Source: Squalus acanthias (Eukaryota). Taken from it: a stretch of 64,000 bases of DNA. The position numbers and the translations under genes were made by a program. The stretch covers positions 5,704,001-5,768,000 of the forward strand of contig CM059450.1 in the NCBI GenBank assembly GCA_030390025.1. Direction: 5' to 3'. The notes under the pieces were generated by a model. It saw nothing but the letters and a program-made list of their open reading frames with translations, made no database searches and was not told the DNA's origin. Below, one piece after another: positions 27,983 to 57,993 of the stretch (positions within the stretch are counted from its first letter, which is position 1; each line of letters begins with the position of its first letter).

Positions 27983-28007
27983 GTTCAAACTCCACTGTAG
28001 AAACAAC
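27983..28007 (-). promoter_or_regulatory. Degenerate iron-responsive element remnant in the predicted 5'UTR (also at about 33875, 40543, 46410, 52170, 57746)
   Basis: GTTGTTTCTACAGTG-GAG-TTTGAAC versus the ferritin IRE pattern TGCTTCAACAGTGNTTGAAC; cap-proximal relative to the TATA box. Confidence 0.65.
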
Positions 28008-28033
28008 CTAACCTCTGCCCGCACAAGCTCCTG

Positions 28034-28200
28034 TATTTATACTAGTGGGACAGCCTGCATTTAAACAGGGTAGGGCAGCACCAATGATGATTGACAATCC
28101 CTGAGAGCCAATCAGGAATCTTCCATGAATCCAGGCACCAATTAACAAAGGAGAGGGGGTGGGGTTTGAGATACCCAGAGCCAATCAGAGCTTTGGAATA
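28034..28200 (-). promoter_or_regulatory. Class-B promoter: TATAAATA box, several inverted CCAAT boxes and a GT/GC box (shared by copies 5-10)
   Basis: tatttata at 28034-28041; ccaat at about 28081, 28108, 28138 and 28181; gggggtgggg at about 28155; conserved across copies. Confidence 0.7.
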
Positions 28201-54824: not shown

Positions 54825-57717
54825 TCAACTCAGGCTGTGCTTGTCAAACAGGTACTCTCCCAGGCCATTCTCAGGGGCTCCCAGTCTCTTCAAGTTGGTG
54901 ATGTGATCGCCAAGCTTCTTGATCATCTTCACTTGCTCATCCAAGTAGTGGGTCTCCAGGAAGTCACACAACTGAAAGTAAAAACAAAGTACAATTAGTT
55001 CAGCGAAGATATCGTCAAGGGCCTTGAGCTTCACCTCCCATCGGGATTGTCCTTTAGCCTCTACTGGATGGGGTAACTGGTACAAGTGCTGCAGAGAGAT
55101 GGGTGGATTGGATGTCAGATTAGATTTACTCTGGGTGTAATGCAGTTACCAATTTAGAATTGGAAAGCAGAACCCCCTTCATTTACATCTTAATCCTTTG
55201 GTGCCCCAATTTCAATCTGTTTTATGCACTGCCTCATCTCAGAGATCCTGATGCTGAAGTCTTTTGTGAAAGATCAGCAGAAACCTATTGGGCACGGAGA
55301 TATTGCTAAAAAGATTGCACTTCCCCATAGCCTTCAGCTCACACAAAACAAGGCAAGTGTCAGCCGTGGCTCACTGGTACCACTGCCAGAGTCAGAAGGA
55401 CCTGGGTTGTCCCATTTCAGAGAATTGAGTGAAGGCCAACACTTCACTGCAGTACTGAGTGAGAGCTGCAAGGTTAGAGGTACTGTCTTTGGGATAAAAT
55501 ATTATGCAAGGACTTGTCTGCCCACATGGTACTATTTCAAAGAGAAAAACTGGGAATGTCAGTGCCCTGGCCAATATTTATCCTTAACCAACTTAGATTA
55601 TCTGGTGATTTCTCATTTCTGCATGTGGGATCTTTGTGCAGATTGACTGCTATGTTTCTTACATTACAAAAAATGACACTTCAAGAAGTACTGAATTGGC
55701 TGTAAAGCATTTTGGGACACCAAGGACAAGGAAGGCTCTATAGATATGCAAGTCTTTCTTTAAAAGAGACATTAGAATCTTACATGAGGGTCAGTGCTCC
55801 CAGTGGAGAGTTTGTGCAGATCCAGCAGACTCTGGTTGACATTCTTCTCCATCTGCAGAGCTCTCTGCATTGCCACCAGTCCATTGCTCCACTCATCCTG
55901 CTCTGGTTTCTGAGAGTTTGTGGGGAGAGCAGCAGAATTGAGAAAAAAAGTTAGTTATCTAGTCAGCAAATAGAGTAACAGTGGAAGAAATTAGTTAACA
56001 GACTTGAGCATTTCAGGAGTTAGCCAGATCACAACTCAATGTAATTCTTGATATTCTAAGCCAGGAGACTCCCTCTAGATTTTAACCAGACAGTTCATCA
56101 AGAATTCTCTTGGTGATGAGTTTTTGAACTTTAATCACAGCACTATAGGCTCCAAGGTGAGACAACCTAAAATGGAACACAATATTCCAAATGAGGTCTA
56201 TCTAACAGTAATTGCAGTAACAGTTTCTTGATTTTATATTCTATGCCTTAGCATGAGGCCCACCATTCAATTAGCCTTTTTTACCTGCAAGCTAGCTTCT
56301 AATGACATCTATTCTGGGACACACCCCAAATCCCTTCACTCACTCCTATATTAACATCTGATGTGGGCTACATCAACCACTTTCTTCCATTCAACCCCCT
56401 ACCCAATCTTTGCTCTGGAGCTCACTATAGACCCTAGCTCAGCATATAACACCATTTGCAAATTTAGATCATATGCACTAGTCACAATCCAGTGGTCTAT
56501 TTTATACCAACTGCCTCCTGCTCCACCCAGTTTTATTGGTGTCACAAGGTTGCTCCTAATGCACTTCCAATTTCTGCCAGCAATCTCCTGCCTTCTGAAA
56601 ATCCATGCATACAACCATCATTAATCCTCCTCTGGAGGAACTGCCATGACTCAGATAATCTAGTATTAGGTAACTAGCCTACTTTTCACAAAACCAAGGC
56701 AATTGGTCAAAGTTCACTGAATCTAACCTTGATGTCCTCCAGGACAATACACCCCCCACGGCGATTCTGGAATTGCATCAGTTTCTCAGCGTGCTCACGT
56801 TCCTCATGTGACTGCTCCTTGAAGAACTCGGCAAAGTGACGCAGGGCAACATCATCCCGGTCAAAGTAATAGGACTGCAGGTAAAGACAAAATGTAAAAA
56901 GGAGACACAAGTCAGATCTAGATCTCATCCATGGCCAACTCAAATGGTAGCAACACACACCAATACTTCCCAAATCCTTTGTGAATATGTTGAAAGCCCC
57001 TCATTGAAGTAGCTCAACAGAATAGGAGGTCATGTTAGTGGAAAATATTAGTGAGCATTAATGCTTTTTGGATTAAAGCACTCAACTACACTTGGCCAAA
57101 ATATCTGTGGTATCTCCTTTTGTTCCCTGATGGAAATCAAAAGCCAGAGAAGGAAAAGAGCCAAATCTTTAAAATTCAGTAGTCTAACACCAGCCTCAGG
57201 TGAGAAAGTCTAACACAATAGGATTCACTCAATTAGAGGGGGGATAAAAACTGGCCAGAACCAGCCAATGTTTCACTAACTAATCACCCAATTAAATCTA
57301 ATTGTTTCCATCCAAGTTGGAAAGTTGACCAGTTTTATGAATCTTCCAGATGAACCCTCCATTACAAACTTGATGAAACCCTGGAGTTAGTTTCAGATAT
57401 AAACACTTCAGAATAGGACACAGCTGTTACAGAGCAGGGAATGAGTCCTTCTGCAGGATCACTGTGTGAAGAGTATTCACTGGATTAAGACTGGGGAGGG
57501 CTATAGAGAGACACTCTAAAGCCCATTCATTGACCTAGAGAAATTCTACCTGCTTAGAAAACAATGATGCCACAGCCTTAATTTTGAAACAGGATCCCAA
57601 AAATACAAAACTCACCATGGAAAGATAAACATAGGAGGAATAGAGCTCCATGTTGATCTGCTTGTTGACAGCATTCTCACAGTCCTTGTGGTAGTTCTGA
57701 CGCACTTGGGAGGCCAT
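54825..57717 (-). CDS. fth1: Ferritin copy 10 (class B), 173 aa
   Basis: Exons 57717-57616, 56874-56728, 55909-55784, 54971-54825; ends LS*. Confidence 0.93.
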
Positions 57718-57993
57718 CTTCACTCTTCCTGTTGATAAGAACTAAGTTCAAACTCTACTGTAGAAACAACCTAACCTCTGCCCTCACAAGCTCTTGTATT
57801 TATACTACTGGGACAGCCTGCATTTAAACAGGGTTTGGTATCACCAATGATGATTGACAATCCTTAAGAGCCAGTCAGGAATCTTCCATGAATCCAGGCA
57901 CCAATTAACAAAGGAGAAGGGGTGGGCTTTGTGATACCCAGAGCCAATCAGAGCTTTGGAATACAGAGGTTTGGATGATTATTCTGTGATGTC

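Follow-up and report, generated by a model that had tools for sequence, protein, structure and literature searches.

In the shark Squalus acanthias, the promoters of one class of tandem ferritin genes (class B) carry a motif downstream of the TATA box that is, by sequence and position, a decayed iron-responsive element (IRE). The ferritin mRNAs made from these genes are likely to escape repression by the iron regulatory proteins (IRPs) IRP1 and IRP2. The window analysed was a stretch of 64,000 nt (C27:5704001-5768000, where C27 is contig CM059450.1 of assembly GCA_030390025.1) in a genome of 3.7 Gb. Its minus strand contains 10 ferritin genes, each with four exons, and part of an 11th. Ferritin is under the control of the IRE, a textbook example of a conserved switch. 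According to the accessible parts of the literature, low iron causes IRPs to block mRNAs with a 5' IRE, and human FTL is freed from this block by mutations of the loop or bulge (PMC11719527, PMC3585816, PMC8466369). There, a single change at C14 or C8 is enough to deregulate translation of human FTL (PMC8466369, PMC3585816).

A first-pass annotation of the window had described motifs downstream of the TATA box TATAAATA in copies 5-10. All six were found, on the minus strand and ~29-51 nt past the end of the box, with the motif of copy 8 a few nt nearer to its box than the others. The claim that all class-B promoters carry the motif held for the whole cluster (20/20 class-B copies). Copy 10 reads CAGTAG, as described, and the 5' arm was the most variable part of the motif (pi 0.26 over the 20 class-B copies).

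IRE relics, covering n2-n25 of the IRE in the ungapped register, with identity to the genome's intact IRE:
27983..28006, minus strand: copy 5, 17/24, C8 kept
33875..33898, minus strand: copy 6, 17/24, C8 kept
40543..40566, minus strand: copy 7, 17/24, G7 kept, C8 changed to T
46410..46433, minus strand: copy 8, 15/24, shorter spacer between TATA and motif
52170..52193, minus strand: copy 9, 17/24, GTG variant, n16-n25 of the IRE kept
57746..57769, minus strand: copy 10, 18/24, CAGTAG variant

TATAAATA boxes:
28034..28041, minus strand: copy 5, first T at 28041
33926..33933, minus strand: copy 6, first T at 33933
40594..40601, minus strand: copy 7, first T at 40601
46455..46462, minus strand: copy 8, first T at 46462
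52221..52228, minus strand: copy 9, first T at 52228
57797..57804, minus strand: copy 10, first T at 57804

The ungapped identities listed above were compared with 5,000 random windows, in which at least 15 identities occurred at a frequency of 0.016, at least 17 at 0.0006 and at least 18 at 0.0002. Identity to the genome's own IRE was 15-18/24 in all 20 class-B copies. Gapped local alignment to intact ferritin IREs, with 20,000 random 100-nt windows of the cluster as background, gave p = 0.002, 0.002, 0.010, 0.010, 0.019 and 0.002 for copies 5-10. Because the copies are paralogues, the similarity across the six counts as one test, not six. The distance from C8 to the first T of TATA, counted by eye, was 42 nt in class B, 43 nt in L031 (a ferritin locus outside the array with an intact IRE) and 46 nt in class E of the array. 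The TATAAATA box was near-invariant (pi 0.013), and ACAGT and GTTTGAA were invariant in 20/20 class-B copies. Judged by spacing, transcription of copy 5 is predicted to begin at the A of TTAG (position 33, counting from the first T). Similarity above background, together with a TATA spacing close to that of L031, bears out the earlier identification of the motif as an IRE variant at the position of a ferritin IRE.

How the motif departs from an IRE depends on the alignment register. The first-pass annotation had stated that the bulged C is replaced and that three extra bases follow the loop. This holds in a register anchored on CAGTG, and does not hold in an ungapped register anchored on the lower arm and TTGAA, in which the motif has the same length as an intact IRE. 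In the ungapped register, copy 5 reads TTGTTT C TACAG TGGAGT TTGAA C, compared with TTCTTG C TTCAA CAGTGT TTGAA C in the intact element. The ungapped register was also the one picked by MAFFT when class B was aligned with class E promoters. With this alignment, C8 is retained in 5/6 window copies, in 9/20 class-B copies and in 4/4 inverted pseudo-exon copies, so its loss was probably not the founding lesion. Lesions fixed in class B are n10, n13 and n14 (each 20/20) and n15 (19/20); n16 is changed in 4/20 copies and n17 in 12/20. The class-B change may be either four substitutions or a 3-nt slip, with three bases lost 5' of the loop and GTG repeated 3' of it. A slip would account for CAGTG persisting 3 nt upstream, and the three extra bases may be half of that event. 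In the window, relics in inverted, decayed copies of class-B exon 1 were located as follows.

47668..47691, plus strand: relic in inverted, decayed class-B exon-1 copy, C8 and GTG kept
53434..53457, plus strand: relic in inverted, decayed class-B exon-1 copy
60580..60603, plus strand: relic in inverted, decayed class-B exon-1 copy

As read from the sequence, the class-B motif fails the IRE pattern in every register. Five features of a functional IRE are given in the available text of PMC8466369: a C14-G18 pair, AGU at 15-17, a pyrimidine at 19, a bulged C8 and a five-pair upper helix. In the CAGTG-anchored register, C14 was present in 20/20 copies and G18 alongside it in 19/20, copy 10 being the exception; the ungapped register has U14 in 20/20. 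The CAGTG-anchored register keeps AGU, with the stem closing only round a nine-base loop instead of a six-base one, and the ungapped register has GGA, GGU, GUU or AGA at n15-17. Position 19 is G in 16/20 and U in 4/20 copies in the former and U in 20/20 in the latter. Five pairs below CAGUG, where the bulged C8 would be, a T stands six bases ahead of CAG in 20/20 copies, and the C retained in 9/20 copies sits beneath a non-IRE loop. The upper helix reached 1-4 pairs with a six-base loop in the CAGTG-anchored register, and 4/5 pairs with a fixed A-A mismatch in the ungapped one. The IRE features thus did not occur together in either register, in agreement with the first-pass view that the motif lacks IRP geometry.

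Motif and covariance-model scans gave the same picture. The SIREs rules were re-implemented from the accessible text of PMC2896125 and from all 22 motifs of PMC12230718 Table 2; a leader had to have the N8 and loop listed for a motif, and a single mismatch or 3' bulge was tolerated. Motifs 1-22 matched 0/106 array leaders and 0/3 dispersed leaders on contig C3, and motif 1 matched 4/4 intact controls outside the array. At E<=10, neither the window nor the 91-nt leader of copy 5 gave an IRE match in an Rfam scan (RF00037, IRE_I, cut-off 34 bits). The SIREs and Infernal scans, which had been proposed as checks in the first-pass annotation, are therefore in line with a broken IRE in the class-B leaders. 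Other Rfam matches at E<=10 (CDKN2B-AS, sR24, KCNQ1OT1, mir-1175 and three at the dispersed ferritin locus L122) were rejected as chance, being far under the gathering scores. For ensemble folding, each sequence was taken from 26 nt past the first T of TATA and extended 30 nt into the coding region. In either register, an IRE-type upper helix had a probability of <0.005 in 20/20 class-B copies, compared with 0.62-0.69 in 3/4 intact IREs.

A different hairpin had been proposed for the motif in the first-pass annotation. It can be drawn, but it was the minimum-energy fold in only 3/20 copies and showed no covariation. Three copies gave it an ensemble probability of 0.33, 0.10 and 0.09, and in the other 17 this did not exceed 0.025. 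As a conserved structure it was rejected: its covariation was reached in 103/500 shuffles (14 distinct rows), and 87.9% of cells were paired compared with 86.3% after shuffling (119/500). The hairpin of the ungapped register was likewise unsupported (86/500 shuffles, fixed A-A mismatch). Folds of the first 45 predicted bases had z-scores from -0.5 to +1.6. The relic core had a pi of 0.076, compared with 0.20 in the remaining leader. New constraint on the relic nevertheless found no support: 39% of intron windows and 66% of upstream windows were at least as conserved as the core. There was no sign of a new structure under selection in the relic.

The class-B genes belong to a large array. A genome-wide search with one ferritin exon gave 122 matches among 131 candidates, the majority on C27. 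The interval C27:5440001-6288000 was examined in full and contained 112 exon-1 matches, from which five flanking single genes and one fragment were left out. The array thus comprised 106 exon-1 copies between 5522202 and 6261099 on C27 (~740 kb). By leader sequence these fall into classes A (4 copies), B (20), C (38), D (28), E (8), F (7) and G (1). Automatic gene models gave intact frames in 89/106 copies, the "broken" ones including copies in which the automatic rules missed exons. The array proteins have the usual ferritin N-terminus, without a signal peptide. The ferritin copies below lie in the window.

25148..27954, minus strand: class-B ferritin gene 5, four exons, intact 176-aa frame, ferroxidase-site residues retained
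30789..33846, minus strand: class-B ferritin gene 6, intact, 173 aa
37447..40514, minus strand: class-B ferritin gene 7, intact, 173 aa
43217..46380, minus strand: class-B ferritin gene 8, intact, 173 aa
49105..52141, minus strand: class-B ferritin gene 9, intact, 173 aa
54825..57717, minus strand: class-B ferritin gene 10, intact, 173 aa
1514..22450, minus strand: class-A ferritin copies 1-4, one broken and three intact, leaders without an IRE or a detectable relic

A broken IRE is not peculiar to class B. No array class has an IRE, and in class E it was lost by other changes. A second relic was found in class E (p 0.0001-0.0066 in the gapped test). All eight class-E copies and two genes on C3 have lesions at n16, n17, n22 and n23 and keep n10 and n13-15. 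The relic of the two C3 genes is the better one (TTGTTG C TTCAA CAAAGT TTAGA C, 19/24). None of the fixed class-B lesions is common to the class E-type relics. Because the two lesion sets do not overlap, parsimony points to an ancestor of B and E with an intact core and to at least two losses of the IRE. No significant relic was found with the gapped test in classes A, C, D and F (median p 0.34, 0.34, 0.19 and 0.61).

Some further observations concern these leaders. The dispersed array-type ferritins on C3 are L120, L121 and L122; two of them carry the E-type relic in its best-preserved form (19/24), and the third combines a class-C leader with a stop codon. In class-C leaders (e.g. C27:5787903) and in L121, TTCTTGAACTT directly follows the initiator and equals an IRE minus the upper stem-loop between TTG repeats. 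An origin of TTCTTGAACTT by deletion in class C is suggestive only. In class D, an IRE look-alike seems to straddle the predicted start.

The coding sequences of the array formed one clade, with support of 100/99 and 100/100 in two trees (tree 1 with 53 of 83 distinct rows, classes C and D subsampled; tree 2 with 27 chosen rows). Together with the C3 genes, this clade was sister to an IRE-less gene at C27:5503031, not to the IRE-bearing genes. Coding identity between classes was 94-97%. Promoters of distant classes were 53-69% identical and those of B and C 78%, and most introns could not be aligned. This points to exon homogenisation overlying old promoter lineages. Because the coding sequences are homogenised, the count of losses is based on the leaders alone.

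Intact IREs are present elsewhere in the genome. RF00037 gave four matches (46.7-48.1 bits) among 82 scored candidates, and all four precede a ferritin exon 1 outside the array. This exon is intact at L033 and L034 and frameshifted at L031 (C27:33259) and L032 (C27:5500029), which have perfect IREs. L031 and L032 may be either recent pseudogenes or assembly errors. Intron 1 of L031 contains LINE-like sequence, and a glycogen synthase gene lies ~0.16 Mb away, a neighbourhood that presumably recalls human FTL-GYS1. L034 (C10:52355675-52361660) is an intact IRE-bearing ferritin, tail-to-tail with a bestrophin gene ~40 kb off; we take this to be the arrangement of human FTH1-BEST1, and L034 is likely the FTH1 orthologue. 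Transferrin receptor (TfR)-type IREs gave three matches; they occur in a run (L115/L117, C5:28357282-28357425), and one is also on the small contig C3278 (L116). Three aconitase-family loci were found in the genome, which we infer to be IRP1, IRP2 and mitochondrial aconitase. As intact ferritin IREs, TfR-type IREs and three aconitase-family loci have been kept, the IRP system appears to be present.

The proposed mechanism is as follows. Transcription would start at about position 33, counted from the first T of TATA. The resulting leader of ~55 nt would have the relic at its cap end and contain no upstream ATG. IRPs would be unable to dock on both C8 and AGU. With docking lost, output would follow promoter activity and copy number, so that control would be exerted by transcription and gene dosage, probably in the ovary, a site borrowed from another shark. 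The array genes are likely translated without iron control, and separate ferritin genes with an intact IRE would serve ordinary iron control. The most likely driver would be relaxed constraint after tissue-specific promoters had taken over the genes.

Several points weigh against this reading. The intact IRE of L032 also scored low in ensemble folding (0.015), which makes this a blunt test, and the folding z-scores of intact IREs were weak (-0.1 to -1.5). Of about 2 million candidates in the Rfam genome search, only 82 were scored. If three extra loop bases are tolerated, 5/20 class-B copies give U8, CAGUG and 5/6 pairs, near SIREs motif 22, the selection-derived class with U8 and an extended loop. 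The sister gene C27:5503031 has no detectable IRE or relic (p 0.47), so that one more loss is needed. Coding sequences of B and E are 96% identical, homogenised between the classes, compared with 62% for their promoters, and gene conversion could blur the history. The ovary expression of a ferritin cluster comes from another species, as given in the accessible text of bioRxiv 10.1101/2024.09.09.611499. Three sets of presumed-RNA contigs over window positions 24901-44800 had depth mainly at repeats and none in the class-B exon-1 bins, which, with no positive control on an IRE-bearing gene, counts neither for nor against the reading.

The rival explanations differ in what they leave of the element. 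A non-canonical IRE with a U8 bulge, CAGUG and an extended loop might bind IRP1 weakly and give attenuated iron control. U8 is accepted in SIREs motifs 20 and 22, in the latter together with two additional loop bases, CA; the 5/20 copies reaching 5/6 pairs with three extra bases include window copies 5 and 6, and ACAGT and GTTTGAA are invariant. However, even this relaxed pattern does not fit 15/20 copies, its ensemble probability is 0.0000 after rounding in each of the 20, and the core is no more conserved than the intron and upstream fractions given above. In addition, regulation in vivo by RNAs that bind only weakly in vitro is argued against in the accessible part of PMC8466369, and we consider such an IRE improbable. 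Similarly low odds apply to a start of transcription further downstream, which would leave the relic partly or wholly outside the mRNA and make its decay a by-product of promoter change. The predicted start is ~3 nt upstream of the lower arm of the relic, so a small shift would cut it. Yet the TATAAATA box is near-invariant, both class B and class C have an initiator-like A at position 33, counted from the first T of the box, and the loop region lies at least 12 nt past this A. That the resemblance to an IRE is chance is the least probable of the alternatives and very unlikely. The motif was noticed post hoc by eye, the copies together form a single evolutionary sample, three of them reached only p 0.058 in the gapped test, and Infernal gave no IRE match. 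Against this stand the background of 0.0006 for 17/24, the TATA spacing as in the intact-IRE gene L031, and class E, which aligns gap-free in the relic segment and keeps the complementary half of the IRE.

Selection for IRE loss would add a cause to the decayed-IRE reading, with which it is compatible, and is a possible but doubtful extension of it. Amplification and repeated removal of IRP repression would let oocytes stock ferritin whatever the iron level, as a vertebrate parallel of snail yolk ferritin. It fits the lesion sets, of which at least two are independent, the lack of an intact IRE in 106 copies and the 89/106 intact frames of the automatic models. It also fits the ovary-specific cluster reported for the Greenland shark (available text of 10.1101/2024.09.09.611499) and the snail yolk ferritin without an IRE (PMC10799875, accessible part). 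Unlike snail yolk ferritin, however, the array proteins have no signal peptide. There was also no sign of acceleration: class-B and E-type relics differ at about one third of positions, a divergence similar to that of the flanking promoters (62-66% identical). This is consistent with neutral decay and does not point to selection. Neutral decay accounts for the sequences as well as selection does. We tentatively outline a dosage-driven maternal ferritin, in which an IRE-bearing gene would have been amplified to >100 copies and its promoter lineages would have disabled the IRE differently, under selection for oocytes able to store ferritin outside IRP control. Class B would have lost the IRE through a 3-nt slip, class E through changes in the loop and arm, and class C possibly through a deletion between TTG repeats; subunits with an altered ferroxidase site would have arisen inside the same array.

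Returning to the decayed IRE itself, the relic resembles the ferritin 5' IRE (RF00037, PMC12230718 and the available text of PMC8466369 and PMC2896125) in 15-18/24 bases, in its place just behind the TATA-predicted start and in the 3' arm TTGAA (20/20). It differs in that no register joins C8, a five-pair helix and CAGUG followed by any base, and in that the lower stem is unpaired. As in the human FTL hyperferritinaemia-cataract mutations, the loop, the C bulge and the upper stem are hit (PMC3585816 and PMC8466369, accessible parts). The human changes are disease alleles, whereas in the shark several lesions are fixed together across paralogue classes, beside genes with an intact IRE.

The shark ferritin cluster and IRE-less ferritins as such are already known. 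In the available text on the Greenland shark, 155 and 179 ferritin copies, clusters common with the white shark, and ovary-specific expression are described (bioRxiv 10.1101/2024.09.09.611499). Compared by copy count, the two expansions are alike, with >100 mostly full-length ferritins in one cluster there and 106 copies, 89 intact, here. The terms "IRE", "UTR", "iron" and "translation" are absent from that main text, as are the promoter classes, IRE relics and independent losses described here. IRE-less snail yolk ferritin (PMC10799875) and FTMT (PMC7760355) are likewise specialised paralogues outside IRE/IRP control, and yolk ferritin serves oocytes. According to the accessible parts of these papers, however, snail yolk ferritin is secreted and has a signal peptide and an insert (PMC10799875), and FTMT is an intronless retrogene (PMC7760355). 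The shark array, in contrast, consists of intron-containing tandem genes without a signal peptide, in which the decaying element is visible in at least two forms. Tandem amplification of ferritin is also described for fthl27 of the hadal snailfish, interpreted as a dosage effect (PMC10746142). At 14 copies it is far smaller, and "IRE" and "iron-responsive" are absent from the main text of PMC10746142. A literature search that left most subscription journals uncovered gave no paper on IRE status or decay in shark ferritin clusters.

The genome thus presents a vertebrate that keeps the IRE on a few ferritin genes next to a block of >100 paralogues without any, with decay visible at several stages. 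A published, unexplained expansion of shark ferritins gains a testable logic, namely iron-independent, dosage-driven output, probably in oocytes. The relics also form a natural series of IRE mutants for IRP-binding tests.

Outside the array, L040 (C27:5490483-5496748; 6551-6748 of the locus, minus strand) is an intron-containing ferritin without an IRE. It has an N-terminal extension of 32 residues, rich in Arg, Leu and Ala and free of acidic residues, that resembles a mitochondrial presequence. A similar extension occurs in two shark proteins, 207 and 228 aa long. L040 may be a separately built mitochondrial ferritin; a separate origin is proposed because mammalian FTMT is an intronless retrogene (PMC7760355, accessible text) and L040 contains introns.

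Within the array, the strand flips at a 319-N gap (C27:6162000-6174449), and the copies just before the gap are rich in frameshifts. The assembly is likely poor in this region, which makes copy counts near it uncertain. Spliced ferritin exon 3-4 fragments with a stop are inserted in the array, at window positions 2867-3028 (plus strand) and repeatedly through the class-C block. Exon 2 encodes KHED or KHEH instead of EREH in 3/3 intact class-A copies and 9/35 intact class-C copies (window positions 14525-14671 and 20952-21098, minus strand, and nine class-C copies at C27:5.99-6.15 Mb). In ferritin numbering, this change presumably hits the ferroxidase ligands, as in L chains. The KHED/KHEH copies alternate with normal copies in a two-gene repeat of ~13.7 kb.

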